From an uncultured Gammaproteobacteria bacterium (GTDB taxonomy: Bacteria > Patescibacteriota > Microgenomatia > UBA10105 > UBA927), in contig CAYUZE010000005.1 in assembly GCA_964449585.1 (NCBI GenBank), forward strand, positions 46,596 through 110,595: a stretch of 64,000 nucleotides of DNA, read 5' to 3'. Below the pieces are notes generated by a model, which saw nothing but the letters and a program-made list of their open reading frames with translations, did not search any database and had not been told where the DNA came from. The position numbers and the translations under genes were made by a program. Positions 3,122 to 27,593 of the stretch are shown here, in pieces (the stretch's first letter is position 1; the number at the start of each line of letters is the position of its first letter).

Positions 3122-4366
3122 TTACTTTGTAACCCACTTCTCCAGCGCCCGTTGCAGTTCGGGGCTGTCTTTGGCTTCAGATAGGGGAATGCCGTTAAGT
3201 GCCGCATTGAGTGACTGAATGATCGCCCGCGCCCCTGCGGGAGTGCCGTCGGGATGTCCGTGGATGCCGCCGCCGAAGTTCATCAGTAAATCTTTGCCAA
3301 GGATCGACACAAGGTCGGGGATATGTCCGGGGTGCAGTCCGCCCGAGGCGGTAGGGAGGGTCGTTTTTAGCCCGTACCATTCACTGCGGAGAAAATTATT
3401 GATCGTCACCACTTCTTCGCGGCCTCCTTCCATTTTGCCGACCACGGTTCCGGTGTGGAACGAGTCGATACCCGCAAGCCGCGCGAGTTTGGCGATGACG
3501 AGCATCGAGATACCGAAAATTTTAGATCGGGTAAATGCCGCATGCATCGCGCGGTGCCCGTGGATCATCAGTCCGTAGTTGCGGTTTCGTATCCCTTGGG
3601 TCGCGGCAAAGCCCGCGGTCAGTACATCGATCATCAGGCAGTTCGCGCCGCTATCGCGCACGTAGTTTGCGCGTTTCATCATTTCTTCGTAACTGGCCGT
3701 GATATTGAATGCATGGATTTTGGCATTGCCGATTTCAAGGTAATGCTTTTCCTTCATCCTGCGGGTGACTTCATCCACCCGGGTATAGAAATTATCAAAT
3801 GTCATGTTGGCAAGGTTTTCGTCATCTTTGACGAGGTTGACGCCCCCGTCCCATACCTCCATACACGCTTCGGCGTGGCGGACACTGGTAAGCCCCAGTT
3901 TGGGTTTGATGATAGAACCGGTGAGCGGACTGTCTTTCACCCCCGTGAGGTTGCGGATGCCGTCAATGCCGAGTGCGGGACCGGGGAATGATTTGACGAA
4001 TACCTCGGGAAATTCCAAGTCCTCAAGTCGGAGTCCCACGATTTCCTTGAGTCCGAACACGTTGCCCGTGATAGAAGAGAGGAGTTGGGGGATACTTCCC
4101 GCCTCAAACAAATCCAGTGGATACGCAACGACAATTCTCCCCGTAGTTTCATCCATGTCGATGACTTTGGCATGTAACTTATCCCAGATTGCTTTTTCCT
4201 CGAGCCCGATGTCCGTCCACGTGCCGACGGAGGATTCCGCCGCCACACCTCCTGCGGTCTTATCAAACGGTTCACCTTCCACTTTGAGGGTAAAGGTAGC
4301 CAAAATATGCTTGGTCTTGTCGACTTTTTCGTTGAGTGCCAGATAATGGATGTACCGATTTGCCAT
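3122..4366 (-). CDS. rbcL: Ribulose-1,5-bisphosphate carboxylase large subunit, form III (II/III)-like
   Basis: 414 aa; motifs GGVNLVKDDENL (GGxDxxKDDE active-site loop), GLHPGHIP and catalytic Lys region; length and motifs fit the archaeal/CPR-type RuBisCO. Confidence 0.85.
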   Translation of the reverse strand: MANRYIHYLALNEKVDKTKHILATFTLKVEGEPFDKTAGGVAAESSVGTWTDIGLEEKAIWDKLHAKVIDMDETTGRIVVAYPLDLFEAGSIPQLLSSITGNVFGLKEIVGLRLEDLEFPEVFVKSFPGPALGIDGIRNLTGVKDSPLTGSIIKPKLGLTSVRHAEACMEVWDGGVNLVKDDENLANMTFDNFYTRVDEVTRRMKEKHYLEIGNAKIHAFNITASYEEMMKRANYVRDSGANCLMIDVLTAGFAATQGIRNRNYGLMIHGHRAMHAAFTRSKIFGISMLVIAKLARLAGIDSFHTGTVVGKMEGGREEVVTINNFLRSEWYGLKTTLPTASGGLHPGHIPDLVSILGKDLLMNFGGGIHGHPDGTPAGARAIIQSLNAALNGIPLSEAKDSPELQRALEKWVTK

Positions 4367-4373
4367 AGAAATA

Positions 4374-5267
4374 TTATAGAGAGATAAACGGATAATTCAT
4401 ACGGGCGGTTTCGACAATTTGTTCCCCGCGAAGCAATCCCGCTTCGGTAATGATCGTGATGTCTTTATCATACGGCGTAAAGTCAAAGGCGGGGGCAAAG
4501 ATCGAAAGCTTTTCGGGCGCATCGTTCCATATTTCCGACGGATTGCGGGTTTCGATAAGCGACTGGTCAAACGGGCGAGGATCATATTTTAACAACGTGG
4601 AGAAGCAATACACGGGAATATTTCGCGCCCGTGCCGCAAGTACGATGGCAAGACTGCCGATTTTGTTGACAAACCCCGTGTCGGTCAGTAAATCCGCCCC
4701 GATAAATACCGCCGAAATATTCCGCTTCGGATCGGCAAGCACCGAGGCAGCGGCGCTATCGACGATCAGTGTCACGGGATCGATACCCCCGTTTATGAGT
4801 TCCCGCACCGTGAGTCTTCCTTGAAACAGAGGGCGCGTTTCGGTGGCGATAACCGAAAGTTTTTTGCCTTCCCCATGTGCCGCCAGAAACGCGTTGGTGA
4901 CCGTTGATGCGTGGCAATGGGTCAGGTAGGCGGCGCCGTCCCGCATGAGTTTGGCGCCGTGCTCAGCGATTTTGTGCTTTGCATCCTTTATATAGGTCGT
5001 ATAAGTGGCGATTTTTCCCAATAGTGCCGCGGCATGTTTGGGCGAGTCGGCAAACATACTCCGTACCGCATTTTGTGCCAGCGGCTCGGTAGGGCGCGCG
5101 TATGCCAGTGCATCGGCCATCTCTTTTAGCGTCGTTACGGGTGTTTCGGGGGCATTGCGTACCGTGAGGGTAAGGGTATCAAGCATGGCGAGCGCAACGT
5201 TGGTGGCACCCTGAATGTTTAAGGCTTTGATATCCGAAACCACCTGTTTGTAGGGCAGCATATACAC
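4374..5267 (-). CDS. Ribose-1,5-bisphosphate isomerase (eIF-2B alpha/beta/delta-like family, E2b2)
   Basis: eIF-2B-like fold motifs (THCHASTV, IATETRPLFQGRLTVRELI, VFIGADLL); directly upstream of, and co-directional with, RuBisCO as in the AMP/nucleoside salvage pathway. Confidence 0.7.
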   Translation of the reverse strand: MYMLPYKQVVSDIKALNIQGATNVALAMLDTLTLTVRNAPETPVTTLKEMADALAYARPTEPLAQNAVRSMFADSPKHAAALLGKIATYTTYIKDAKHKIAEHGAKLMRDGAAYLTHCHASTVTNAFLAAHGEGKKLSVIATETRPLFQGRLTVRELINGGIDPVTLIVDSAAASVLADPKRNISAVFIGADLLTDTGFVNKIGSLAIVLAARARNIPVYCFSTLLKYDPRPFDQSLIETRNPSEIWNDAPEKLSIFAPAFDFTPYDKDITIITEAGLLRGEQIVETARMNYPFISL

Positions 5268-5304
5268 CCATTGTAGGAAGAAAATTACGCCAAGACAATA
5301 CGCG

Positions 5305-5625
5305 TTACCTGGTGCGGGTGAGGTGGATCACGGTACCCGTTTCCGCGTCGGTCAGCGTACCGGTAGCATCATTAGCGGGCAAATTTGCGATATCGATAGG
5401 TGTTCCTACCTGTTCAAATTTCAAATACACCCGTCCGGCGCCCTTCGCCCCCTCACTGATCATGTGGGAAGGAGCCCAAAGTATCTTCCGCCAGATCCCC
5501 GGTTGTATTTGGAGTCGGGCGGACATAATTCCCCCCGATTCCTTGGGGTCGGGGATGGTAAATTCATCGCGTTCATCGGGTAGCCGCTCTATGTAGCCTT
5601 TGATTGTCATAACGGGATAAATCAC
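5305..5625 (-). CDS. Hypothetical protein
   Basis: 106-aa ORF downstream of the isomerase; no recognisable motif. Confidence 0.3.
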   Translation of the reverse strand: MIYPVMTIKGYIERLPDERDEFTIPDPKESGGIMSARLQIQPGIWRKILWAPSHMISEGAKGAGRVYLKFEQVGTPIDIANLPANDATGTLTDAETGTVIHLTRTR

Positions 5626-5700
5626 ACAAAAAAATCAGCCATTTTCAAGTTGTATGGCATGTACATTCCGCGCAAATGTGACGAGCATTATGATACGGTA

Positions 5701-5709
5701 TGATATACT
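5701..5709 (+). promoter_or_regulatory. Extended -10 promoter element TGATATACT, about 6 nt upstream of an ATG (likely leaderless or very short leader)
   Basis: TGnTATACT matches the extended -10 consensus TGnTATAAT at 8 of 9 positions; sits immediately before the start of the 5710 ORF (likely true ATG at 5716). Confidence 0.35.
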
Positions 5710-6045
5710 TTGGGTATGGTGAAAGAGAAACATGTCTATGCGTGCGCGGAAGGAAGGATTCGCGGTCGGGAACTGGCCGATCTGGCGAACGCGACGAAAG
5801 TAATTTCCGCCCGTTTCTTTCCCGGAGGTAAAAGAAGCCTGGTAGAGTTGGATAAGAGTGCGCTACAGGCGACAATAGCCGAGGATGAAATGGTGGTATT
5901 AATTACGGAACCGCAAACGAGTTGGCGGGAAGATTATGAGTTGTCCGAGCGGGCAAAAGTGTTGCTTGGGAACGCCGGCAGAAAGTGGCGAAGCGATACA
6001 CACGCCAATCTCATCGTCGAATTGGAGTTACGAATGCTTCAGTAG
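5710..6045 (+). CDS. Hypothetical protein (track start is TTG; likely ATG start at 5716)
   Basis: ORF only; no homology recognised. Confidence 0.3.
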   Translation: MGMVKEKHVYACAEGRIRGRELADLANATKVISARFFPGGKRSLVELDKSALQATIAEDEMVVLITEPQTSWREDYELSERAKVLLGNAGRKWRSDTHANLIVELELRMLQ

Positions 6046-6205
6046 CCACTTCGTACCATCCTTCCTGAATCCTCGGGTCGAATGCGCGGGATCGTGTTCC
6101 ACTTGCTGATTTATTTTCAAGATAGTACTTACCCAGAAAATAACCCACCCATTTTCACCATAACCGGAAGAAAAATAATACCGGCGTGTGAGGGGCTTGG
6201 GAATC

Positions 6206-6523
6206 TTATTCTTCCGGAAATTTGAGGACGCCGGTAATAAATAAATCAATGCTGTGAAGCAACTGAATCTGTGTTTCCCTTGCCCCCTTGAGGGGATTTT
6301 TTCCTCTATTTTCCTGACGTAGCTCGCGGATTTGCCGTTGATCCATGGAGAGCACCGTGGTAACAATTTCTTCAAATTCTGCTCTTGAATGACCCCAGGT
6401 ATCAGCCCATGCTATTTTCTCGGGAGTCAGGAAGTGTGTCTGTAGGCGATTACGGTTAGCCTGGATAAAACTCAGTTCTTCGTCCGGGCTAATTCGTCGC
6501 GGCATGCGGTGGGATTCATTCAT
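6206..6523 (-). CDS. Hypothetical protein
   Basis: 105-aa ORF; no recognisable motif. Confidence 0.3.
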   Translation of the reverse strand: MNESHRMPRRISPDEELSFIQANRNRLQTHFLTPEKIAWADTWGHSRAEFEEIVTTVLSMDQRQIRELRQENRGKNPLKGARETQIQLLHSIDLFITGVLKFPEE

Positions 6524-6591
6524 TTCACAAAAATTATAGCATTAATTGGGTATGCGGGTACGTCCTATGGGTGTGGATAGGTTGAACACAT

Positions 6592-6600
6592 GATACAATC
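6592..6600 (+). promoter_or_regulatory. Extended -10 element TGATACAAT, 5 nt upstream of the relict ychF start codon (original ychF promoter)
   Basis: TGnTACAAT followed by ATGAATCTGAAAGTAGG (the relict ychF 5' end). Confidence 0.4.
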
Positions 6601-6605
6601 TTGGC

Positions 6606-6622
6606 ATGAATCTGAAAGTAGG
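6606..6622 (+). repeat. attL-like direct repeat ATGAATCTGAAAGTAGG (relict ychF 5' end)
   Basis: 15 of 17 nt identical to ATGAACTTGAAAGTAGG at 12741-12757 (current ychF start); TTGG is also shared just upstream in both copies. Confidence 0.6.
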
Positions 6623-6784
6623 AACCCTTGTTACAATGCTCCAACTCTTAAATTAAGATTTTTACTTACAATCCCAGCTCCCAACAGAGGAAGAATAATC
6701 TCTAGTCGTAGTAATTTAGGAAGAATTATAAAAGCTCAGGTCCCAGACTTGACTGCTACGATTTAATGAACTAATCTACTGCTG

Positions 6785-6806
6785 CTGCCCGAAAGGGCCT
6801 TTTTTT
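6785..6806 (+). terminator. Candidate intrinsic terminator (GCCCGAAAGGGC hairpin followed by a T7 run)
   Basis: Perfect 4-bp GC stem with GAAA loop then TTTTTTT, immediately before the first element ORF. Confidence 0.35.
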
Positions 6807-7616
6807 ATGGCATACATCGCGAAAAATAAAGCAGTAATAATTCTGCTATTTATAATTCTTAGTCTCTCTGTTGCAGGATGGTACGCATCTAAGTTACCAC
6901 TTGAATCTACTTCAAAAGATTTTGCTATTACGGTCCTTAATGGTTTTTGGACCGCTTTATTTGCCTTTATTTTCTTAGGGCTTTCATCTATTGCATCAAA
7001 AGTGTTTGGTCGTGAACTAAAACACTATAACTCATTGGTAAATTTAGAGACGCAACTTAACGAAATGATTGGAGTTATTAAGGATAATATCTACGTAATG
7101 AAAGGTTATAAAACAGTTATCCTTAAAGGAAATATTCATTGGGGGAATTTAAGACCGATATTTATTGATAAATCTCATTATGAGAATTTACACGATATCA
7201 ATCTTATAAACAGAGTATTTTCATTCTTTTATCAGGTTAGAAAAATCAATGATGATATGGAAAATTTACAGGCTGGTTACAATGACCTAAAGAATGCATA
7301 TATACAAAAACAGATACGAGTTGAACAATATGTAGAAAATGCTCGAAGGATTTGCGAAGTCCTTGATGATTTGGAAGACTTTTCTGAAGAATTGTTCGAT
7401 GAGCTTTTATCCCTGTTAACCCGTGTTCAAATTCAAATTAGGAAGGAAAAACCACTCACCGCAATTATTAATGAAGCACTCATATATACAACAGGGGATA
7501 AGATTACATTGTCAGAATTTGAAACCGCAAAGAAAAGAATTAAATCGGAACTTGAAACATCGGCTAAAGAATCTGCCGAACAAATCGCCAAGATTCATAA
7601 AAGGAGAAAGAAATGA
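6807..7616 (+). CDS. Membrane-anchored coiled-coil protein (2 N-terminal TM helices; K-rich C-terminus)
   Basis: Hydrophobic segments at about aa 9-27 and 48-68, then a long predicted helical/coiled-coil region; AT-rich codon usage. Confidence 0.45.
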   Translation: MAYIAKNKAVIILLFIILSLSVAGWYASKLPLESTSKDFAITVLNGFWTALFAFIFLGLSSIASKVFGRELKHYNSLVNLETQLNEMIGVIKDNIYVMKGYKTVILKGNIHWGNLRPIFIDKSHYENLHDINLINRVFSFFYQVRKINDDMENLQAGYNDLKNAYIQKQIRVEQYVENARRICEVLDDLEDFSEELFDELLSLLTRVQIQIRKEKPLTAIINEALIYTTGDKITLSEFETAKKRIKSELETSAKESAEQIAKIHKRRKK

Positions 7617-7870
7617 AAAAATATATCTTTATGGTCATGCCGCCACAATTTAATACCTCAGCAGGAGTAGAAGTTGACGAGGTAGAAATTAAAACTCTTA
7701 CTGAAGAAGTTGAGATAATAAGAATCCGTATTATGGCTTCAGAAATTAAGGAAGCATTTGAAAAAGCGAAGCAGGAGTTGTCCCAAATTATTACAGTATC
7801 TTTTGGGCACATGAAGAACTTCGATTACTATGCTTTTAAACTTAGATTAATTGAAGTTGAAAATTTTTAG
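7613..7870 (+). CDS. Small hypothetical protein (85 aa), translationally coupled to upstream gene
   Basis: ATGA start/stop overlap with the upstream ORF at 7613-7616. Confidence 0.4.
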   Translation: MKKYIFMVMPPQFNTSAGVEVDEVEIKTLTEEVEIIRIRIMASEIKEAFEKAKQELSQIITVSFGHMKNFDYYAFKLRLIEVENF

Positions 7871-9186
7871 ACAACAAGCCAATTATGGCTTTCTAAATAG
7901 GCTTTTACGGTATCGGGGTGAGGATGTTCAAATCCAAAAATCCAAAATATTTCGTTTATCAAATTGATAAAGTAATCTTGAAATCGCTTCTTATCATTAA
8001 GTATCGAGGTGTCAAGCTCCAACGGATAATAGTAATGTTGCAATAATCCCATCTTGTCGTCATCAGGAAAAGTTTCTCTCCCTGTTAATACTGGTTTGAT
8101 ATAGATGTCTTCAGTGCTCTTTAATGAGAGACTACCTTTTATTCCACCTTGATACTCAAATAATTTATAAAAGTTTGTTGTAGCTTTCATTACAGCAAAA
8201 GTAAGGGAAATTAGATGCGAAATGTAGATAAATTTATATCCAGTTTCTAAATCCAAATTTAGAACATCTTTTGACAGGCGAACAAAACCCGATGAGTAAA
8301 TCTGTTCATTATGAATTCCTCCGTAATCCTCACGCCAAGAGAACGTCATAACCCCTTCTGGGATTGGTTCCATATTAACTGACGGAAAGTTAATGCGAAA
8401 AGTCCTATCACCATCTCGTATATCAGTTAGTCTTTCTTTTATATCTCGGGGCGTGACAATTGGCGTAGGATAGTAAGGTTGTAAAATCACACTAAAAATA
8501 GAAGCGTTGGACCCGAGTTCTTGTTGGAAAATTTTCGATTGAAATTCTGGTGGAGGTTGATGTTGCGTTAGCGCTTCTTGTCTTGCGCGTTTATAATTTG
8601 CTTTCTCAACTGCAATTTTCTTCTTGCGTTCTATTTCTCCTCTGTGTAAAGCAGCTTCATAGATTTCATTGGATTGTTGTATTTTGAGGTTTCTTAATAT
8701 TTCAGCATTTTCTTTTTTTCTTACGAGTAATTCAGTTGCCTCTGGTGATGCTAAATCAACAGAAGGCGTTATATTTCCTGTTCGGACATATATTTTGGGG
8801 TCATTTTGTACATAGTAGGGAGTTCTATCCCCTTCAAATACTCTTATTAAGATAAAATTTCTTCCATTTACTTCGTTTGTTGGATGCACTTCATACAACG
8901 GAAAGGGAGTTATATTGGAAGCCCACTGATGTATTCTTTCAACGTCTTGAGCATTAACAGGAATGCCAGTCCAAGCAGAGGGGACGCCAGTTGTTCTATT
9001 TTCCTCTACGCCAATAATGATTACGCCCCCTCTAGTATTTGAAAACGCGGCGATAAGTTTGGATAAACCATCCCGAGGCAATTCCTTCTTATAGTCAATT
9101 TGGAGACCTTCTCTTATTCCTTCTTGGCAAAAAGTCTCAATTTTAGCGAAGTCAAATGATTTGATGGGTTTATTGAGGATATCCAT
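7867..9186 (-). CDS. AlbA_2 (Schlafen-like, divergent-AAA/putative DNA-binding) domain protein with uncharacterised C-terminal domain
   Basis: N-terminal motif LSKLIAAFSNTRGGVIIIGVEEN matches the AlbA_2/PF04326 signature (AFANxxGGxIxIGVxD); aa 200-439 lack recognisable motifs. Confidence 0.55.
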   Translation of the reverse strand: MDILNKPIKSFDFAKIETFCQEGIREGLQIDYKKELPRDGLSKLIAAFSNTRGGVIIIGVEENRTTGVPSAWTGIPVNAQDVERIHQWASNITPFPLYEVHPTNEVNGRNFILIRVFEGDRTPYYVQNDPKIYVRTGNITPSVDLASPEATELLVRKKENAEILRNLKIQQSNEIYEAALHRGEIERKKKIAVEKANYKRARQEALTQHQPPPEFQSKIFQQELGSNASIFSVILQPYYPTPIVTPRDIKERLTDIRDGDRTFRINFPSVNMEPIPEGVMTFSWREDYGGIHNEQIYSSGFVRLSKDVLNLDLETGYKFIYISHLISLTFAVMKATTNFYKLFEYQGGIKGSLSLKSTEDIYIKPVLTGRETFPDDDKMGLLQHYYYPLELDTSILNDKKRFQDYFINLINEIFWIFGFEHPHPDTVKAYLESHNWLVV

Positions 9187-9221
9187 GTTATCTGGACGCT
9201 ATTATATACCCTTATTAAATT

Positions 9222-9500
9222 CTAATGAATGAAATAACTCAAAAGGTGTGTAATTATTGGGGCAATAAAGGCGGGTCCAATTATCAAGCCTAATACAAAG
9301 GCTAAGATTAAAAGCTTCCAATTAACAAATAAAAGCACTAGTCCCAGTAGTAAGCAAACAAAGGCATTTATATTTAAAATTGAGATAACAGAAGGACGAT
9401 TGAATAGAGTTGGTCTCTCCGTTACATTAAATTTCCCCCACTTATTTAAGGTAAAACCTCCAAAAGAAAGTAGAAATAGAATTCCCAAAAGATAGTCCAT
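9222..9500 (-). CDS. Small membrane protein (about 3 TM), first gene of the operon with the AlbA_2 protein
   Basis: 92 aa, highly hydrophobic; 35-nt gap to the downstream co-directional AlbA_2 gene. Confidence 0.45.
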   Translation of the reverse strand: MDYLLGILFLLSFGGFTLNKWGKFNVTERPTLFNRPSVISILNINAFVCLLLGLVLLFVNWKLLILAFVLGLIIGPAFIAPIITHLLSYFIH

Positions 9501-9531
9501 ATAAAGAATAAGCTTATTATGAGGCTAAATG

Positions 9532-9546
9532 CACCATCATATGGTG
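9532..9546. promoter_or_regulatory. Perfect palindrome CACCATcatATGGTG in the divergent promoter region (candidate XRE operator)
   Basis: 6-bp inverted arms with 3-bp spacer, 39 nt upstream of the XRE start and upstream of the divergent TM/AlbA_2 operon; adjacent inverted copy of the ATTTAGCCTCA motif at 9520-9530. Confidence 0.45.
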
Positions 9547-9584
9547 TAGATTAGAGGATACACCCAACATACCCTGTATGCAAC

Positions 9585-9800
9585 ATGGCAGGGTACAAAA
9601 TAAACCAGAAACTTGGACAACGAATCCAACGAGCGCGGAAGGGGAAGAAGATATCTCAAGAACAATTTGCCGAAGCTATCGGAGTCCATCGAAATCAAAT
9701 TGGTCGCATTGAGCGAGGGGAAACGAATGTCCCAATGTACACCTTTTATAAAATCGTCAAAGCCCTCAAATTAAAGGCTCGAGATTTACTTCCTTTTTAA
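9585..9800 (+). CDS. XRE-family helix-turn-helix transcriptional regulator
   Basis: 71 aa; LGQRIQRARKGKKISQEQFAEAIGVHRNQIGRIERGETNVPMYTFYKIVKAL is a canonical HTH_3 (Cro/C1) domain. Confidence 0.8.
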   Translation: MAGYKINQKLGQRIQRARKGKKISQEQFAEAIGVHRNQIGRIERGETNVPMYTFYKIVKALKLKARDLLPF

Positions 9801-9876
9801 TGAGTGCGGGAAGGTTTTATATCAAAATATATCAAAGTGATATTAGATATACCGAGGGGCAACCGGCGAATTTACC

Positions 9877-10266
9877 TTAAAGCATTGCTCTCATAAGCAT
9901 GCCTACGGAACGCACAAAGTCATCTAACTTCTCATAGTCTTTATTTACCACCTTCGTAATACCCCTATCTCGAAGTTGCTGATTGTAAGCAGGCATAGAG
10001 GATATTCCAATCACCTTATCTGTCCCAATTTTCTCTAGGTTAATTGTGTGAAAGGAGCCTCCCGCTTTGCAATCGCGGTCTAGGAGCACGATGTCCCAAG
10101 TAATTGATTCGGTTCTATTTACATAGTCTTCTACTTGGGAGTATTCGGAGAGGACGGTAGTAGCTATCTCCACATTACATTCATCCTCAAGAGTACGGAG
10201 AGCCTCCATAAGTTTCGAGAGCGTAGCTAAGTCATCTTCAAGGATAAGTACCCGACAGGTTTTCAT
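9877..10266 (-). CDS. Stand-alone response-regulator receiver (REC/CheY-like) domain protein
   Basis: N-terminal VLILEDD acidic pocket and central IVLLDRDC phospho-acceptor-like Asp in a 129-aa protein with no output domain. Confidence 0.5.
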   Translation of the reverse strand: MKTCRVLILEDDLATLSKLMEALRTLEDECNVEIATTVLSEYSQVEDYVNRTESITWDIVLLDRDCKAGGSFHTINLEKIGTDKVIGISSMPAYNQQLRDRGITKVVNKDYEKLDDFVRSVGMLMRAML

Positions 10267-10671
10267 ATGCCTAGATTGAAGTATAAACGATTCTTAATAG
10301 ATGGGGGGCTGGACAGGAAAACTATACACATTGATAGCCCGATGAAATGAGTAACCGCGTGCCTTGGTTTGTAAAAATTATAAGGTATTTGAAAAGTGAC
10401 ACATTTCAACTATAGAGCGTCCTGATGCACTAAATACCAGTTGACAGGGTGACAATAGAAATTATTCAATGGGCTTGTCTTAAGGGACTACCGTTAGGGC
10501 TTAGAAGACGTTAAAGAAACGAAGCGATAACGGCGACCGAAGCAAAGCAAACGAAACCTATACAGATAAACAGTTAAGACACCTCAGCCGCACCGGCTAG
10601 GAAAATCTGGCAGGGAGAGTGAAGCCAAGCGAGGGAGATGTATTTCTGAGTTATGGAGGGAGAAAAAAACG

Positions 10672-10863
10672 ATGAAAAAGTTACAAAGTGACACTGTAAG
10701 CACAAAACAGGTGCGAATTGACGCTGAGTGGGTAAATGCTCTGGCTTATCTCCGAGCAGACCTCCACGTGTCAATGAAGAGCCTTGTAGAGGAAGCTCTA
10801 AGCAAGTGCTATGCATTGAATTCAGAAGGGAAACCTTATCGAATTGAGAAAGCGTCAGATTAA
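10672..10863 (+). CDS. Small ribbon-helix-helix-like protein (possible CopG/antitoxin-like)
   Basis: 63 aa; VRIDAEWVNALAYL resembles an RHH beta-strand/helix start; weak. Confidence 0.3.
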   Translation: MKKLQSDTVSTKQVRIDAEWVNALAYLRADLHVSMKSLVEEALSKCYALNSEGKPYRIEKASD

Positions 10864-11140
10864 AGCTTGGTATCGAACATTTATCATTTCCATTTTCATT
10901 ATGAACATCAATAGCTATTTAACCGTCATAAGCGGAAGAACCAAATTGACCCTGTATGAATTCGATACGTATAAAAAAACGACGCAGTCCGACGATTGTA
11001 TTTCGCTATATGGTGGATGCGGGTGGAGCCACGCCTATCAAACGGATGTATAGCCGTATATTTGAGTTAGCGTATGAGCGAGTTATAGAGCGTAGGAATA
11101 AGATAAGTACTTAACAAAGTATAATGGAATAAGGGAAAAT

Positions 11141-12799
11141 ATGGGTGAACCATTCCAACCAACTAGTAGTGATAAAGTTCCACGAAAAGCAGCAATATAC
11201 GCTCGTGTTTCTACTGAAAATCAGGAGAAGCAACAAACAATAGACTCTCAGATTGATGAGGTCAAAAGGCGAATAGAGGTAGATGGAAACACCTTGACCG
11301 AGGAGAATATCTATATTGATGAAGGCTGGTCAGGGATGCTTTTGGCAAGACCTGCGTTAGACCAGTTACGTGATGCCGTTTCATCTAAGCGGTTCGATAT
11401 GGTGTACGTATATGACCTCGGGAGGCTATCGAGAGATTTTACCAACCAGCTTGTATTAATTAAGGAGATTGAAGATTCGGGGGTAAAGGTTGTTTCTTTG
11501 CATGACATTAACCCAGAAAACGATGAGCAAGGGTTTATAAGAAATATCTTGGGTAGCTTCCATGAGTATGAAAGAGTCAAAATCGCCGACCGCATGCGCA
11601 GAGGCAAACTTTATAAAGCAAGAAATGGCAACATTATCAACGGAAATGCGATTTATGGCTACTCGTATATTAAGAAAAGCGGCGATATACCCGCATCATG
11701 GGTAATAAACGAGCAAGAGGCAAAAGTCGTAAGGATGATATGGCAATGGGTAGGGGAGGAAGGAGAGTCAATTCGGGGTGTTATAAAAAGGCTTTACGAT
11801 ATGGGTATTACTCCTCGCAAACAAAAACGTCCCATTTGGACAAAGGGACCAATTGTACGAATACTCCAATGTAATACATATGTGACCGGCAAAGCCCATT
11901 ACAACAAGTCAGAAGCTACTATCGCAAAACGTCCTAGGAACAGCGACCGATACAAAAAGGTTAAGAGAACGAGTAGAAAAGTGCGACCGGTAGAAGAATG
12001 GATACCATTCGACGTTCCGATAATCATTCAGGATTTGGCGTTATATGAAAAAGTACAGAAAATATTCGAGCTTAACAAGAAATATGCAAATAAGAAAAGT
12101 AAGGGAAAGTATTTATTTACGGGAAGGATATTTTGCCAATGCGGAAGCCGTATGAACGGTGACGGGTGCAATAAATATGGTCACTTCTACTACCGGTGTA
12201 CGAGTAGAATCCACAAATTTCCTCTAGATACGTCTTGTAAGGCTGGTGGTGTGAATGCGAAGCTATTGGATACGTTGCTTTGGAATGCTCTTAAGAAACA
12301 AATTAGCGATAGCGTGCTTCTCCGGCAATATGCGGAGGAATGGCTTGAATCAAAGCAAAAGCATCTCGATATCTCAGAGGAGGTTGAGAGATTGCAAAGC
12401 ACGCTTAACAGCCTTTCTCAGGAAGAAGAGAGATATGCAAAGGCATATGGGGCAGGTTCACTAGATTTAAGTTTATTCACTAACCTTATTAAAAATATAC
12501 GAAGCCAAAAGACCGATGTTCAGGAAAAGATGTGTGGCATCATGGCTACCCATACGAGCGACATATCTCCAGTGGAAGTTGATGAGCTCGTAAAAGAATC
12601 GTTGGAAGTAATTGAAAAGTTAGATTGGGATAACAAAATTGCCACAGTTCGCGATATAATAGAGCGCGTTATTGTCAGAGAACAAACTGGAGTAGAGGTG
12701 TTCGTACATTTACCTATGCCATCTACCCAAAAGTTGGATTATGAACTTGAAAGTAGGCATCGTCGGGCTTCCCAATGCAGGGAAATCCACCTTATTTAA
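11141..12799 (+). CDS. Large serine recombinase (resolvase N-terminal domain plus recombinase domain plus Zn-ribbon/coiled-coil)
   Basis: AIYARVSTENQ catalytic Ser motif, then YDLGRLSRDF; Cys cluster CQCGSRMNGDGC...YYRC typical of large serine integrases; 552 aa. Confidence 0.85.
   Translation: MGEPFQPTSSDKVPRKAAIYARVSTENQEKQQTIDSQIDEVKRRIEVDGNTLTEENIYIDEGWSGMLLARPALDQLRDAVSSKRFDMVYVYDLGRLSRDFTNQLVLIKEIEDSGVKVVSLHDINPENDEQGFIRNILGSFHEYERVKIADRMRRGKLYKARNGNIINGNAIYGYSYIKKSGDIPASWVINEQEAKVVRMIWQWVGEEGESIRGVIKRLYDMGITPRKQKRPIWTKGPIVRILQCNTYVTGKAHYNKSEATIAKRPRNSDRYKKVKRTSRKVRPVEEWIPFDVPIIIQDLALYEKVQKIFELNKKYANKKSKGKYLFTGRIFCQCGSRMNGDGCNKYGHFYYRCTSRIHKFPLDTSCKAGGVNAKLLDTLLWNALKKQISDSVLLRQYAEEWLESKQKHLDISEEVERLQSTLNSLSQEEERYAKAYGAGSLDLSLFTNLIKNIRSQKTDVQEKMCGIMATHTSDISPVEVDELVKESLEVIEKLDWDNKIATVRDIIERVIVREQTGVEVFVHLPMPSTQKLDYELESRHRRASQCREIHLI
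12741..12757 (+). repeat. attR-like direct repeat ATGAACTTGAAAGTAGG (current ychF start)
   Basis: Partner of the 6606-6622 repeat. Confidence 0.6.
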
Positions 12800-13817
12800 C
12801 GCGCTATTGAAAAAACAGGTGGCGTTTGCCGCAAACTACCCGTTTGCTACCATTGAGCCAAACATCGGGGTCGTGCCCGTACCTGATGAACGGTTGGCAA
12901 AAATTGCCGAAATCACTAAAGAAGAAGATCACCTGGAAAAACTGCCGCCGCTCCGTCCCGCCACCGTGGAGTTTGTTGACATCGCTGGACTGGTGAAGGG
13001 CGCAAGTGAAGGCGAAGGATTGGGAAACAAATTTTTAGCCCACATTCGTGAGGTGAATATTATCTGTAACGTCCTCCGGTTTTTTCCCGACTCGAACATT
13101 GTCCATACCGAAGGGGGAATAGATGCCGAGCGTGACCGTACCATCGTCGAAACGGAGCTCGTGCTCGCCGACCTGCAAACACTTGCCAAACAGCAGGAGC
13201 CCAAAATGAATGCAACGAAGGAAGATCGGGCGCGGTATGAACTCGTTAAACGACTTAAAACCGCCATGGATGCGGGCAAGCGCGCGGGAGAAATCCTTAC
13301 CGATCCCGACGAACGGGAGCTTATCCGCCCGCTCCAACTCTTAACAATGAAGCCGATCGTCTACGTGGGCAACGTCTCCGAATCACAGCTTGCCGTTCCG
13401 CCGCAAACGAATCTTCATCCGATGGTGTTTATATCCGCGCAAACCGAATCTGAACTTGCCGCCATGACGCCCGAGGAACAAAAAGATTATCTTGCATCGC
13501 TCGGAGTTGCCGCGTCGGGACTTGATCTGCTAATCCGCACCGCATACGAAACACTGGGACTTATATCTTTTCTCACGACGGGAGAACTGGAAAGTCGTGC
13601 CTGGACGATCGAAAAGGGCATGAAGGCACCGGCAGCCGCCGGGGTGATTCACACGGATTTCGAAAAGAAGTTTATTAAAGCGGATACCGTGTCGTATGCC
13701 GACTTTGTTGCCTGCGGCGGTTGGAAAAAGGCACGGGAAGCCGGAAAAGCCCGCAGTGAGGGTAAAGAGTACGAGATGCAGGACGGTGACATCGTGGAGT
13801 TTAAAATCGGCAGTTAA
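12741..13817 (+). CDS. ychF: Ribosome-binding ATPase YchF (Obg-like GTPase family)
   Basis: MNLKVGIVGLPNAGKSTLFNAL G1 motif, TGS C-terminal domain; 358 aa. Confidence 0.9.
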   Translation: MNLKVGIVGLPNAGKSTLFNALLKKQVAFAANYPFATIEPNIGVVPVPDERLAKIAEITKEEDHLEKLPPLRPATVEFVDIAGLVKGASEGEGLGNKFLAHIREVNIICNVLRFFPDSNIVHTEGGIDAERDRTIVETELVLADLQTLAKQQEPKMNATKEDRARYELVKRLKTAMDAGKRAGEILTDPDERELIRPLQLLTMKPIVYVGNVSESQLAVPPQTNLHPMVFISAQTESELAAMTPEEQKDYLASLGVAASGLDLLIRTAYETLGLISFLTTGELESRAWTIEKGMKAPAAAGVIHTDFEKKFIKADTVSYADFVACGGWKKAREAGKARSEGKEYEMQDGDIVEFKIGS

Positions 13818-14101
13818 TGTAGACTCATATGACATTTCGCATTGAACGGTTCCCTGACTGTTACTATACCGGTCGTGAAAGGCTATATAAGGCCGGGGAG
13901 GAATTGAAGGTGCGGGTGAGTGCAATGGGTGGCCTTTCCACAAGGGAAGCAACGCTCGAGAGCTTAGCATCCGGCAAAGGGTTCATCGTCGGAGACAGAG
14001 TTATTCGACCGCCAAATTTTATCTGGACGAATTTCGGGTATGCCATTGCAGAATAAAACCCTCATTGAAGATTACGTTCCAATTTGCTATCATTATTGCT
14101 T

Positions 14102-14380
14102 ATGACTACGTACGAACTCATGGTTGTGGTAAATAGCGCCGTCGATTTGACGGGCGATAAAGCGCAAAAAGATTTGGTGGAAAAACTTGTCGGTGCAGGC
14201 GGCACGGTGACGGAAGTGACCTCGCTGGGCAAGAAAACGCTTGCGTATCCGATCAAAAAACAAACGGAAGCAACCTATCTTCTCGCGACAGTAACGGGAT
14301 CAGTGAAATCAGCGGAAATCGACAAGAAATCCAAACTCATGGATGAAGTCTTGCGATTTTTGTTGACGGTAAAAGAGTAA
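14102..14380 (+). CDS. rpsF: 30S ribosomal protein S6
   Basis: YELMVVVN...LAYPIKKQTEATYLL matches S6; conserved rpsF-ssb-rpsR order. Confidence 0.8.
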   Translation: MTTYELMVVVNSAVDLTGDKAQKDLVEKLVGAGGTVTEVTSLGKKTLAYPIKKQTEATYLLATVTGSVKSAEIDKKSKLMDEVLRFLLTVKE

Positions 14381-14400
14381 CGGAAGAGAAAGGGGTATCT

Positions 14401-14889
14401 ATGTCCAGCAGAAGTTTGAACAAGGTAACGCTCATCGGAAACCTTACGAGGGATCCTGAGCTTCGATATACACCGACGGGTGCCGCCGTGTGTACCATCG
14501 GTCTTGCGACCAACAGGACATGGGTAACTGATGCGGGGGAAAAGAAAGAAGAAACCGAATTTCACCGCGTCGTTGCTTGGAATAAGCTTGCCGAACTTTG
14601 CAGTCAGCTGCTCTCCAAAGGCCGCAAAGTCTATGTAGAGGGAAGACTTCGGACTTCCGCCTGGCAGGCACAAGACGGGTCACAGCGGACAAGTACGGAA
14701 ATCGTCATCGAAGACATGATCGTACTTGATTCAAAGCGACCGGGAGAAGAAACGGGAGAATCGCAGGATAAGCCGACAGCAGCACCCGTAGCACCGAAGA
14801 AGAAAGTCGAGAAAAAAGAAGCAAAAGAGGAAGCTCCTTCAGCGCCGTCGGCGGCAGAAGAAGTGAATCCTGACGATATACCGTTTTAA
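14401..14889 (+). CDS. ssb: Single-stranded DNA-binding protein
   Basis: OB-fold motifs (NKVTLIGNLTRDPELRYTP, HRVVAWNKLAE) and acidic C-terminal tail ending DDIPF. Confidence 0.9.
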   Translation: MSSRSLNKVTLIGNLTRDPELRYTPTGAAVCTIGLATNRTWVTDAGEKKEETEFHRVVAWNKLAELCSQLLSKGRKVYVEGRLRTSAWQAQDGSQRTSTEIVIEDMIVLDSKRPGEETGESQDKPTAAPVAPKKKVEKKEAKEEAPSAPSAAEEVNPDDIPF

Positions 14890-14920
14890 CAGATAAAATT
14901 GACAAAGTAACAAAAAACAT

Positions 14921-15166
14921 ATGATGAAACGATCTGGAAAATTTGTACGAAAACTGCGACCGGTTCCGACCAACTGTCCGTTTTGTGCGGCGGGTACGAG
15001 TCCTGATTACAAGGATGCGGCGGCACTTGGCAAATACCTTACCGAACGCGGCAAGCTTCAAGGACGCGCACGGACAGGGCTTTGTGCAAAGCATCAGCGA
15101 CGCGTCGAGCAGGCGATCAAGCGTGCACGGTTAGTCGCGATCTTACCGTTTGTGGTACGAGCCTGA
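14921..15166 (+). CDS. rpsR: 30S ribosomal protein S18
   Basis: CPFC...DYKD...LxxYLTERGKL..R..TGLCAKHQR motif. Confidence 0.85.
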   Translation: MMKRSGKFVRKLRPVPTNCPFCAAGTSPDYKDAAALGKYLTERGKLQGRARTGLCAKHQRRVEQAIKRARLVAILPFVVRA

Positions 15167-15176
15167 TAGATTTTCA

Positions 15177-16466
15177 ATGAAATCCCTGCCATTCTCAAAA
15201 ATACGATCCTTCGTTTTAATTCTCGCGCTCGTCATTCTCTCCGGAGGCGTGGGATATCAGCTGGGTGAGCGCAAAGTCTCCGTGGGATTTTCCGATAAAC
15301 GTCCCGTTATCAATACCGGTGCTCCCAACGGCACCAGCGTCAATTTCGGCGTGTTTTGGGATGTCTGGGGCAAACTTACCCGGTACTATATAGAACCGCA
15401 GACCATTGATGTGGAAAAGCTCGTTAATGGGGCGATAACGGGCATGGTGGCCGCCGTCGGCGACCCATACACTTCCTTCTTCCCCCCGCAGGAAAACAAG
15501 CAGTTTAAAGAAGATTTGGGAGGTGCGTTTGAAGGCATCGGTGCGGAGCTGGGACTGAAGGACGGTCGCGTCATTATTGTTTCGCCGCTCAAGGGTACCC
15601 CTGCGGAGGCCGCGGGAGTCAAACCTAACGATATTATCCTCAAGGTGAATGATGAAGAAACCGCAGGATGGACGGTAGAACAGGCGGTGAACAAAATTCG
15701 GGGACCGAAGGGAACCAAAGTAACACTCACGCTCCTTAGCCCTATTGATGCGTCGGGTCCGCGGGATGTCAGCATCGTACGCAACACAATCACCGTGCCT
15801 TCCGTTACTTCCTGGATCAAACCGGTACGTGAAATCACCGAAATTTCCGCTGCCACTGAAGCGGCACAACTTAAATCCCGCTCCTCGGATGACCGTGTTG
15901 CTTACATCAAGCTGACCCGATTCGGGGACAACACCAATGCCGATTGGAACAAAGCCGTGGATGCGATTCTTGCCGCAGACAAAGCCAACAAACTCGGCGG
16001 TCTGATTTTGGACCTGCGAAACAATCCGGGAGGCTATCTGGACGGCGCGGTGTACATCGCCAGCGAATTTATGAAAGGCGGCACCGTGGTATCACAGGTT
16101 AACAGTGATGGAACCCGACAGGATTACCCGACGGATCGAAGGGGAAGATTGACCGGCATGTCGATTGTCGTACTGGTCAATAACGGTTCCGCATCGGCAT
16201 CGGAAATTGTTGCCGGAGCACTTCGGGACAGTAAGCGGGCAAAGCTGGTCGGACAAACGACATTCGGCAAAGGCACCGTGCAAACGCCGTTTGATCTTTC
16301 GGGCGGCTCAAGCGTGCATATCACGACCGGCAAGTGGTTGTTGCCCGGCGGCAGTTCAATCAGTCAAAAAGGGCTTACGCCTGATCTTACGGTTGCGCTT
16401 GATCCTGCAGTGTCCGCGACCGCGGATGCGCAACTTGCCCGTGCGATTGAACTCCTTCTTCAGTAA
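15177..16466 (+). CDS. ctpA: Carboxyl-terminal processing protease (S41 family, CtpA/Prc-like) with PDZ domain
   Basis: PDZ (GIGAELGL...GTPAEAAGVKPNDIILKVN) plus S41 catalytic region (LDLRNNPGGYL, GSASASEIVAGAL); start chosen at MKSLPF to avoid overlap with rpsR. Confidence 0.8.
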   Translation: MKSLPFSKIRSFVLILALVILSGGVGYQLGERKVSVGFSDKRPVINTGAPNGTSVNFGVFWDVWGKLTRYYIEPQTIDVEKLVNGAITGMVAAVGDPYTSFFPPQENKQFKEDLGGAFEGIGAELGLKDGRVIIVSPLKGTPAEAAGVKPNDIILKVNDEETAGWTVEQAVNKIRGPKGTKVTLTLLSPIDASGPRDVSIVRNTITVPSVTSWIKPVREITEISAATEAAQLKSRSSDDRVAYIKLTRFGDNTNADWNKAVDAILAADKANKLGGLILDLRNNPGGYLDGAVYIASEFMKGGTVVSQVNSDGTRQDYPTDRRGRLTGMSIVVLVNNGSASASEIVAGALRDSKRAKLVGQTTFGKGTVQTPFDLSGGSSVHITTGKWLLPGGSSISQKGLTPDLTVALDPAVSATADAQLARAIELLLQ

Positions 16467-16511
16467 TTTTTCGGTTTTGCGATGTATGGTTTGTTGTGTA
16501 TACTAAGTGGT

Positions 16512-17663
16512 ATGAAACAGCAAAAAATACTTCTTCTGAGTGCTCTTTTCCTGTTGATTACGGGCGGCATCGTATCGGCCGGTTTTTTGGGACTGAATTG
16601 GCAACAGGTAAACAAGGTGTTTAAATTACCGTTGGGAACCAGCGCTCCATCACAAACCTTTTCCGATCGCATAAAAGTGGTAGAGGAAGAAAATGTTATT
16701 ACCGATGTGGTGGAGCGAGTTTCACCCTCTGTCGTTACGGTAGGTATATCACAGACAAGAGCGGTAGGGGATATTTTCGATTTTAATCCCTTTGACCCAT
16801 CGGAAACTGCGCCCCGCAGGCGCACGATCGAACAGGATATCGGCAGCGGCTTTGTGATCTCTTCTGACGGGCTTATTGTGACCAACAAACACGTGGTGAG
16901 TATGAGTAATGCGAAATACCGCGTAATCACCAAAGACGACAAATCCTATGATGTGGTCAAAATCTATCGTGATCCCGATAACGATTTGGCTATCGTCAAA
17001 ATAAACGCTACGGGGCTAACCCCCCTAGAAATGGGCGACTCGGATAAACTGAAGGTGGGACAAATGGCGATTGCCATCGGTACCGCATTGGGTGAGTTTC
17101 GGAACACGGTAACGGTGGGCGTTATTTCTGGCGTGGGGCGCGGCATTACGGCGGGTGAGCCGTTTGGCGGCAGCGCGGAAAAACTTGATAACGTCATTCA
17201 AACCGATGCGGCAATCAATCCCGGTAACTCGGGAGGACCGCTCCTTAACTCTGCAGGTCAGGTAATAGGCGTCAACACCGCCGTTTCCGCCGAGGGGCAG
17301 GGCATCGGATTTGCGCTTCCCATTAATGTCGTTAAGGATGCAGTGGCGAACTTCAATACCACGGGACAATTTAACCGTCCGTTTATGGGAGTTGAGTACC
17401 GTATGGTGACGCGCCAAATCGCCGTATTAAACGAGATTCCCGAGGGGGCATACATCATGGCGATCGTATCGGGAAGCCCTGCTGATGACGCAAACATCGA
17501 AGAAGGGGATATCATTACCAAAATAGCGGGGGAAAAGGTCACGGAGAGTAATGATCTTGCCCGCATCATCGGCAAGAAAAAAGTAGGGGACAAACTCACC
17601 ATCACCGTATGGCGTAACGAAGAGGAAACGGATCTTACGCTTACCCTGGGAACGCAGGAATAA
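16512..17663 (+). CDS. htrA: HtrA/DegP-family trypsin-like serine protease with C-terminal PDZ
   Basis: Catalytic triad context (TNKHVV, DLAIVKI, NPGNSGGPLLN) and PDZ domain. Confidence 0.85.
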   Translation: MKQQKILLLSALFLLITGGIVSAGFLGLNWQQVNKVFKLPLGTSAPSQTFSDRIKVVEEENVITDVVERVSPSVVTVGISQTRAVGDIFDFNPFDPSETAPRRRTIEQDIGSGFVISSDGLIVTNKHVVSMSNAKYRVITKDDKSYDVVKIYRDPDNDLAIVKINATGLTPLEMGDSDKLKVGQMAIAIGTALGEFRNTVTVGVISGVGRGITAGEPFGGSAEKLDNVIQTDAAINPGNSGGPLLNSAGQVIGVNTAVSAEGQGIGFALPINVVKDAVANFNTTGQFNRPFMGVEYRMVTRQIAVLNEIPEGAYIMAIVSGSPADDANIEEGDIITKIAGEKVTESNDLARIIGKKKVGDKLTITVWRNEEETDLTLTLGTQE

Positions 17664-27439: not shown

Positions 27440-27464
27440 GTACCCTTGGTATAATAGACTTCTT

Positions 27465-27549
27465 GCCGAGGTGGCGGAATGGCAGACGCTCAGGTCTCAA
27501 AAACCTGTGAGCATAATAGCTCGTGGAGGTTCGACTCCTCTCCTCGGCA
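27465..27549 (+). tRNA. tRNA-Leu (anticodon CAA)
   Basis: Hand-folded cloverleaf: 7-bp acceptor GCCGAGG/CCTCGGC, 3-bp D-stem, anticodon stem CAGGT/ACCTG with loop CUCAAAA, long variable arm (type II), T-loop GGTTCGACTCC. Confidence 0.8.
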
Positions 27550-27593
27550 CCCGTTAGATAAAATCTCCGTCAATTGAAGAAGGGAGCGTAGCT

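Follow-up and report, generated by a model that had tools for sequence, protein, structure and literature searches.

We analyzed a window of 64,000 nucleotides from metagenome-derived contig CAYUZE010000005.1 (assembly GCA_964449585.1, positions 46,596 to 110,595 of the forward strand; positions given below are counted from the first letter of this stretch) and found that its interval 6606-12757 is very probably an integrated, nonphage mobile element of 6135 bp, brought into the opening codons of the gene ychF of a Patescibacteria genome by a large serine recombinase (LSR). The insertion itself is proven by an empty copy of the same site in an otherwise identical background. The aligned junctions and reconstructed reading frames further show the attachment site of the element (attP) to lie inside the integrase gene (int), with integration, as read from the DNA, cutting the int frame and replacing the C-terminal tail of the enzyme with 13 residues. 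While the element itself is of an ordinary kind, its novelty lies in the targeting of ychF across a superphylum, in the placement of attP within int with a swappable tail, and in a cargo slot that carries defense genes.

Insertion of the element into the start of ychF

An earlier note on this DNA, made from the letters alone, had described a low-GC interval bounded by an imperfect direct repeat, and both descriptions agree with our measurements. The repeat copies, ATGAATCTGAAAGTAGG at 6606-6622 and ATGAACTTGAAAGTAGG at 12741-12757, have exactly the coordinates and sequences claimed and match at 15 of 17 positions; both mismatches are synonymous in the ychF frame and leave the YchF protein unaltered. 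The GC content is 38.4% over 6623-12757 versus 51.1% in the left and 50.6% in the right flank, and a sliding profile of the window, at about 0.49-0.55 before, falls to 0.32-0.43 over roughly 6500-12750. The features on which the argument rests are as follows.

6591-6599, forward strand: extended -10 box of native ychF (TGaTACAAT), ending 6 nt before the ATG of the left repeat copy
6606-6622, forward strand: core of attL, the native ychF start ATGAATC plus the shared TGAAAGTAGG, identical to the empty site
6606-6656, forward strand: residual 16-codon open reading frame (ORF), MNLKVGTLVTMLQLLN and a stop, behind the displaced ychF promoter
6623-6766, forward strand: stranded 3' end of int, 47 codons, NPCYNAPTLKLRFLLTIPAPNRGRIISSRSNLGRIIKAQVPDLTATI and a stop
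6787-6806, forward strand: hairpin GCCC-GAAA-GGGC followed by seven T, noted in the sequence
11141-12799, forward strand: int, the LSR in its integrated form, 552 aa, with the Pfam domains Resolvase, Recombinase and Zn_ribbon_recom
12734-12757, forward strand: core of attR, comprising TTGGA (12734-12738), the element-borne ATGAACT (12741-12747) and the shared TGAAAGTAGG
12741-13817, forward strand: ychF, 358 aa, with the Pfam domains MMR_HSR1 and YchF-GTPase_C; its first 7 nt come from the element

The decisive evidence is a contig that lacks the element. The earlier note had proposed looking for an empty ychF site in related genomes, and when the YchF protein was looked up by exact sequence, a single further contig was recovered that encodes an identical one. 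This contig, L001, is 7456 bp long and comes from the Logan assembly of ERR15459717. It reproduces window positions 3629-6622 at 100% identity, fused directly to 12741-17219, such that 6622 joins 12758. Its only differences from 12741-17219 are the two repeat mismatches, and there are 0 differences outside the core over the 7.4 kb that the two backgrounds share. This junction sets the length of the element at 6135 bp, shows that the left copy ATGAATCTG is the native 5' end of ychF while the ATGAACT in the right copy belongs to the element, and places strand exchange inside the shared TGAAAGTAGG. The proposal that a serine-integrase element had entered the 5' end of a gene and brought a replacement start is thereby borne out, the ATGAACT being what it supplied. 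The roles that the earlier note gave to the two repeat copies have to be redistributed: the left one does sit behind an extended -10 box, but it is the original chromosomal 5' end and not a displaced duplicate, whereas the right one, described as the real ychF start, is the in-frame start at present but consists of element DNA within the int coding sequence. The insertion displaces the native -10 box 6.1 kb from ychF; the same box precedes ychF in L001 and is found at attL of other loci.

Other close relatives differ in occupancy. A second empty lineage (L187/L188, 93% YchF identity) has TATAAT, 7 nt, and then the ATG. L079 comes from a sister strain with an element at the identical site; its host flanks are 89-90% and its int 95.6% identical to those of the window, while the cargo is swapped. 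That Int is closer than the host flanks suggests recent spread and mosaic exchange. The earlier note had held that a relative carrying the same 6 kb in the same place with matching GC would speak against integration. The L079 element is at the same place and equally low in GC, but its exchanged cargo supports mobility. In L183-L186 (89% YchF identity; e.g., GCA_002430675.1, DJCT01000001.1) ychF is occupied by another member of the family, whose integrase shares only 35% identity with the window enzyme and whose genes code for HTH_3 and DUF5659 proteins, a 658-aa Prim-Pol/PriCT/AAA_25 replicase, an HTH_17 protein and a 527-aa LSR. From this replicase, some family members are probably able to replicate as plasmids.

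The 552-aa LSR that the earlier note placed at the end of the element is confirmed by its three Pfam domains: PF00239 matches residues 17-164 at 8e-32, PF07508 and PF13408 match as well, and the PHROGs integrase match for 11141-12799 reaches 1e-86. The catalytic Ser24 lies in the motif YARVST, and R22, V23, S24 and T25 are invariant across 37 homologues. An AlphaFold2 model of the homologue P0036 has long helices at 386-468, after the Cys cluster, which correspond to an inserted coiled coil. As the earlier note had also stated, phage structural genes are missing: PHROGs identified no capsid, tail, terminase, packaging or lysis gene in the window, its matches being the integrase, a helix-turn-helix (HTH) protein and one AlbA_2 protein only, and the viral contigs of IMG/VR held no close relative, the top match being 32% identical.

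The attachment site within int and the exchangeable tail

A feature that had gone unremarked in the earlier note is that the last 59 nt of the int ORF overlap ychF, from its start codon onward. Int codons 534-539, Tyr-Glu-Leu-Glu-Ser-Arg (tATGAACTTGAAAGTAGG), overlie that start and, read one base off register, furnish the new ychF ATG and first five codons. The last 13 codons of integrated int (HRRASQCREIHLI and a stop) are out-of-frame ychF DNA, and the stop itself is a TAA created by conserved Phe-Asn codons of YchF. All the recognized Pfam domains are retained in this 552-aa form. When the ends of the element are joined into a circle, the int frame remains open: by reconstruction of the frame, the stranded ORF at 6623-6766 follows codon 539 and yields an Int of 586 aa.

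Several lines of evidence point to this stranded ORF as a genuine tail of Int. A hidden Markov model of the tail matches 6623-6766 with an E value of 2.7e-25, and equivalent left-end ORFs on the int strand occur in more than 30 other elements; at loci with an aligned junction, a copy of the ychF start, in most cases preceded by a -10 box, comes directly before the ORF. The family tail is about 45 aa long with the shared motif xPxxDFxFxFxxPxPRKxRxIxxRDxxGRIxxSxxP. Pairwise differences between tails at codon positions 1, 2 and 3 are 0.43, 0.31 and 0.63, and 56% of the identical residues are specified by different codons, a pattern that indicates conservation at the protein level. Moreover, uninterrupted genes in which int continues into the tail are present in L064, L076/L077 (P0036), L078 (P0060), L114 and L120. 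These contigs do not run into ychF; on L078, for instance, a SIR2_2 gene comes after P0060. Within the uninterrupted genes, the mimic of the ychF start lies one base out of register (e.g., ATGAGCCTGAAAGTAGGGAT, which reads MSLKVGI). The residue over the ATG is Tyr, His or Asp across the family (TAT, CAT or GAT), so that NAT followed by G, and hence ATG, is always kept. Because the residue varies while the codon is always NAT and then G, the ATG is conserved as DNA.

The attP site reconstructed from these joins is an imperfect palindrome of about 50 bp in the 3' part of int, centered on the GG of ychF codon 6. Its arms are TTGGA (12734-12738)-N18/N18-TCCAA (6640-6644) in the window and TGGGA-N17/N17-TCCCA in L076, and the dyad center falls between the two G of GTAGG. 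The shared core is only 4-10 nt long, and in L079 the identity between attL and attR narrows to TAGG. Since the attP dyad is centered there and L079 limits identity to TAGG, we predict that the crossover dinucleotide is the GG with which the Gly6 codon opens (6621-6622 and 12756-12757). A search for dyad symmetry returned a clear center for attP only and no single center for the bacterial site, attB. The latter is the start region of ychF, whose right half encodes the conserved motif G-I-V-G-L-P-N-x-G-K-S; the conservation of this DNA probably explains how a single target has persisted across the superphylum. In two loci the element-supplied start alters YchF: in L015 (attL 3073) one residue is added, turning MLKVG into MNLKVG, and in L079 (attL 5361, attR 11601) Ile5 becomes Val.

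Integration, with recombination between attP in int and attB at the ychF start predicted at the GG, has left the native -10 box at attL and re-capped ychF with dual-coded int DNA. From this anatomy we propose that the long Int produced from the circle would perform integration, and the short Int produced from the integrated state would be the form available for excision. Integrated ychF might be transcribed by read-through from int and hence come under the control of the element, while the displaced ychF promoter would read into the tail remnant and the cargo. The tail swap could serve as a built-in state sensor or directionality control, a suggestion for which the evidence is evolutionary. 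Taken as a whole, the idea that the long Int, with its basic and conserved tail, is required for, or stimulates, attP-by-attB recombination, that the tail-less short Int is biased toward quiescence or excision (attL by attR), with directionality residing partly in the topology of the gene, and that transcription of ychF, the gene of a ribosome-associated ATPase, is taken over is put forward tentatively, as one that may well prove wrong. An att site within int together with a tail present in the free form only would be a testable route to directionality or state sensing, for which the field now invokes interactions of the coiled coil with recombination directionality factors. The hairpin at 6787-6806 is weakly inferred to be a candidate terminator of full-length int in the circular form; its stem at 6787-6798 falls below the 5-bp stem threshold of our terminator scan.

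A family aimed at ychF across Patescibacteria, and its cargo

Homologues of the window integrase number more than 1100, and those with a name come from Woesebacteria, Shapirobacteria, Roizmanbacteria, Daviesbacteria and the "Patescibacteria group". Among 74 loci from species-representative genomes, ychF starts inside the 3' end of int, or just after it in disrupted copies, in 63, and the overlap is usually exactly 59 nt. The rest comprises 7 contigs that end too early, the free form L064 and the ambiguous L036; two LSRs labelled Chloroflexia (31-34% identity) are sited away from ychF. The same arrangement recurs in 66 of 80 JGI metagenome loci, next to 11 that end too early, 2 free forms and 1 odd case. 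LSR relatives thus read into the ychF start at 129 of about 135 evaluable Patescibacteria loci, and this targeting persists at Int identities of 34-96%, Saccharibacteria included. The family is large and apparently undescribed: literature searches, incomplete in coverage, returned no paper linking Patescibacteria with LSRs or with ychF-targeting elements. The mobile elements of Patescibacteria (Candidate Phyla Radiation) are poorly charted, and the use of one target of about 40 bp (the first 12 or so codons of ychF, a universal gene) throughout the superphylum makes these integrases candidate tools for site-specific integration in organisms in which genetics is scarce.

Some of the contigs with int-ychF arrangements of the Patescibacteria type (L002, L009, L016-L019, L059 and L011) are titled "uncultured Gammaproteobacteria", "Methanofastidiosum" or "Methylomirabilota"; given their YchF similarity, they probably represent mislabelled or contaminated bins. 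The nearest named YchF relatives of the window itself are from Gottesmanbacteria and the "Patescibacteria group". Loci with more than one copy were also encountered. On AMFJ01007473.1 (137 kb; L120 and L148), one int with a full tail is followed by the int of a second element, which reads into ychF. Tandem arrays or remnants upstream of ychF occur also in L024, L038, L105, L119, L142, L155, L161 and L177, and many loci have two or three tail copies upstream of ychF; in L038 there are three, each with a -10-like box and an ATG. The resemblance of attR to attB may allow new elements to integrate there.

The genes between the junction features fall into a backbone shared with L079 and a variable slot.

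6807-7616, forward strand: 269-aa protein with a hydrophobic N terminus, variable cargo
7613-7870, forward strand: 85-aa protein whose gene overlaps that of the 269-aa protein, variable cargo
7867-9186, reverse strand: 439-aa Schlafen/AlbA_2-like protein (Pfam SLFN_AlbA_2, 1.7e-14), variable cargo
9222-9500, reverse strand: 92-aa hydrophobic protein with a sub-threshold Pfam match only, variable cargo
9585-9800, forward strand: 71-aa XRE-family HTH regulator (Pfam HTH_3, 1.3e-14), backbone, in a region 94% identical to L079
9877-10266, reverse strand: 129-aa protein, backbone, kept in L079
10672-10863, forward strand: 63-aa protein, backbone, kept in L079; its RHH_1 match (E value of 0.14) is below threshold

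The backbone comprises the tail, the XRE regulator, the 129-aa and 63-aa proteins and int. Its right-hand part is 94-96% identical to L079, the tail region only 71%, and the slot at 6735-9512 has no counterpart in L079, where other genes sit. The 269-aa and 85-aa genes (6807-7870) are co-oriented with the displaced ychF promoter, and a count from gene lists shows that in 13 of 17 elements the tail and the first cargo gene after it are encoded on one strand. The earlier note had summarized the cargo as regulators and putative defense proteins; there are indeed one XRE regulator and one Schlafen-like protein, but PADLOC recovered only generic HTH models and no defense system from the window cargo. 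Neither Pfam, PHROGs nor PADLOC assigned a family to the 269-, 85-, 92-, 129- or 63-aa proteins, which leaves the description of the 129-aa protein as receiver-like without a match. The 439-aa protein was modeled by AlphaFold2 with a predicted local distance difference test (pLDDT) score of 89, and its N-terminal domain resembles the N'-domain of SLFN13, SLFN14 and the tRNase domain of SAMD9 (Foldseek E values of 9e-5 to 1.5e-3). Its homologues are also part of the cargo in L002 and L039. The 63-aa protein is the only candidate for a small partner of Int in the clade of the window.

We surveyed the cargo of sister elements in 150 proteins from about 19 delimited elements, which represent 49 Pfam families. 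XRE HTH proteins occur in 8 elements, DUF5659 in 8 and AlbA_2 in 3. PADLOC matches in sister elements include RT-protease, RT-TIR, a CBASS cyclase (1e-74), PD-T4-6 (1e-73), type II restriction enzymes and SIR2, and in L120 the tail is directly followed by genes for PLD-SNF2, an Eco57I-type methylase, a UvrD-type helicase and a PD-(D/E)XK nuclease. The swappable slot beside the tail thus collects defense genes and offers a route to new defense systems of Patescibacteria. A Prim-Pol/AAA_25 replicase is encoded in 15 loci of the family and is absent from the clade of the window, L079 and L002, and in at least 105 of 158 family loci the gene directly before int codes for an HTH_17 Xis-like protein.

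Alternatives, precedents and the fate of ychF

The position of the native -10 box bears on how ychF is expressed. In about 15 of the 52 long ORFs of the window, a TATAAT-like box ends 6-8 nt upstream of the ATG, and a Shine-Dalgarno motif precedes only 8 of 52, which suggests that leaderless transcription is widespread in the host organism. Starts that abut a -10 box in the window include those at 285, 4366, 5261, 23730, 30396, 34044, 40683 and 46834. With 6-8 nt between the -10 box and the ATG at both empty and attL sites, native ychF is probably leaderless too.

Several observations weigh against the element as an active one whose Int changes with its state. The junction expected of the circular window element (GAACTTGAAAGTAGGAAYCCTTGTTACAATGCTCC) has no match in the JGI metagenome contigs, and neither the attP-form contigs L076-L078 nor the 80 metagenome loci have terminal repeats. 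The HTH_17 gene is absent from the clade of the window (10300-11140), L079 and L002, and no recombination directionality factor was recognized in the window. The window tail departs further from the family consensus than the L079 tail does, and the window copy may be decaying. In the AlphaFold2 model of full-length P0036, which has a mean pLDDT of 71, the tail (residues 523-579) scores below 50, so that the model lends its proposed role no structural support. Finally, a promoter and terminator scan of 6300-13000 yielded fewer promoter-like sites than shuffled sequence, and there is no convincing ychF promoter or Shine-Dalgarno motif at attR, where expression in the integrated state is assumed; ychF would then rely on read-through from int, and its expression is probably altered after integration.

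Some of these points would equally fit an immobile relic that integrated once and has lost the ability to excise, the L001 lineage having never been invaded: the missing HTH_17 partner and directionality factor, the diverged tail and the unmatched attP junction all agree with it, and exact copies of the window Int, AlbA_2 and 129-aa proteins are on record in no other assembly. We consider such immobility rather unlikely, in that the int ORF is intact with all the invariant catalytic residues, the lack of any difference from L001 outside the core argues for a very recent gain or loss, and the fact that Int is closer between the window and L079 than the host flanks are speaks for recent horizontal spread.

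A reading in which the element is not self-sufficient but, as a satellite or decayed prophage of a Patescibacteria phage, excises and spreads only when a helper phage provides capsids and perhaps a directionality factor is unlikely for other reasons. The gene content of the fuller members would suit a satellite, with XRE, DUF5659, the Prim-Pol/AAA_25 replicase, HTH_17 and int all lying in 5-12 kb; defense genes abound in the cargo, as they do in known satellites and defense islands; and the Pfam survey detected no transfer genes in any copy. However, the PHROGs and IMG/VR searches described above gave no capsid, terminase or packaging gene in the window and no viral relative better than 32% identity, the window copy lacks even the replicase and HTH_17, and we know of no helper phage for this element family.

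We regard it as quite improbable that the element is a domesticated switch of benefit to the host, in the style of active lysogeny, which would control or silence ychF when integrated and restore the leaderless promoter on excision. There is a precedent in a defective prophage of Streptococcus pneumoniae situated between dnaN and ychF, with int beside ychF, where integration lowers ychF expression and excision restores it (PMC6375853); the 14-bp direct repeats of that element sit in the promoter region, unlike those studied here, which are in coding sequence. The removal of an ATG-abutting -10 box with no obvious replacement and the retention of the ATG mimic throughout the family also suit such a switch, although conservation of the ATG could equally serve recognition of the att site. 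The patchy occupancy, with cargo and integrase clade varying among close relatives, is better explained by selfish turnover, and the low GC has not been ameliorated. A related candidate, a domesticated and vertically inherited int-ychF pair, was rejected, as occupancy, cargo and integrase clade differ among close relatives. An assembly chimera, in which foreign low-GC DNA was joined at a short repeat, can be dismissed for practical purposes despite the abrupt GC shifts at both ends and the metagenomic origin of the sequence, as the same junction anatomy is seen in about 130 independent contigs, including complete genomes, and the sister strain L079 is arranged identically.

An integrated element that is mobilized by its own LSR has well-known parallels. 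Insertion of LSR elements into coding genes, with int at the edge of the element, is classical, as in A118 in comK, SPbeta SprA in spsM and skin SpoIVCA in sigK; phiC31 and Bxb1 are further representatives. Like these, the present family has a three-domain enzyme with a coiled-coil insertion, int at the very end beside the att site, short quasi-palindromic att sites with a central dinucleotide, and only a few bases of identity between attP and attB. Unlike these, its attP lies within the int ORF such that integration alters the C terminus of the enzyme, its target gene is not split but re-capped by a start dual-coded in int, and it is confined to Patescibacteria with one target maintained down to 34% Int identity.

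A second parallel is found in mycobacteriophages. In the integration-dependent immunity that Broussard et al. reportedly described in 2013, attP is said to lie in the repressor gene, with a tyrosine integrase as the recombinase and a degradation tag as the tail that is removed. There too, attP would be in a coding sequence and the free and integrated states would give different C termini, which would act as a state sensor; in the family described here, it is the integrase itself that is altered and not a repressor.

The ychF gene has been noted as a target before, in that LSR-bearing pipolins of Actinomycetota integrate there (PMC11551731). These share with the present family the target, the adjoining int and the defense-rich cargo, a comparison made by description only as regards LSR homology and core. 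They differ in their piPolB: there is no PolB in the window and none among the 25 most frequent of the 49 Pfam families in the 150 cargo proteins, whereas some family members carry Prim-Pol.

The "suicidal" tyrosine integrases of the SSV type, which belong to archaeal viruses and plasmids, also have att within their own gene, which integration partitions, and were considered exclusively archaeal in a 2021 review (PMC8371274). The location of att inside the integrase gene is common to both systems. However, the SSV-type enzymes are tyrosine recombinases that are split into two inactive parts, while here a bacterial serine recombinase keeps its recognized domains intact and exchanges only the roughly 45-aa tail that lies beyond its last predicted DNA-binding strands. 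Our literature searches on serine integrases with attP inside int returned nothing relevant. If true, a switch between Int isoforms would give the archaeal att-in-gene integrases their first counterpart among bacterial serine recombinases.

Further features of the window lie outside the element. At 3122-4366 (reverse strand) a homologue of the RuBisCO large subunit adjoins an IF-2B-family, ribose-1,5-bisphosphate isomerase-like protein at 4374-5261 (reverse strand), the annotation of both being transferred from L079 at 90% nucleotide identity. Two such neighbors are characteristic of a nucleotide-salvage pathway that has been reported from archaea and Patescibacteria. ARAGORN and Rfam detected a single RNA gene in the window, for a tRNA-Leu(CAA) at 27464-27552 (forward strand).

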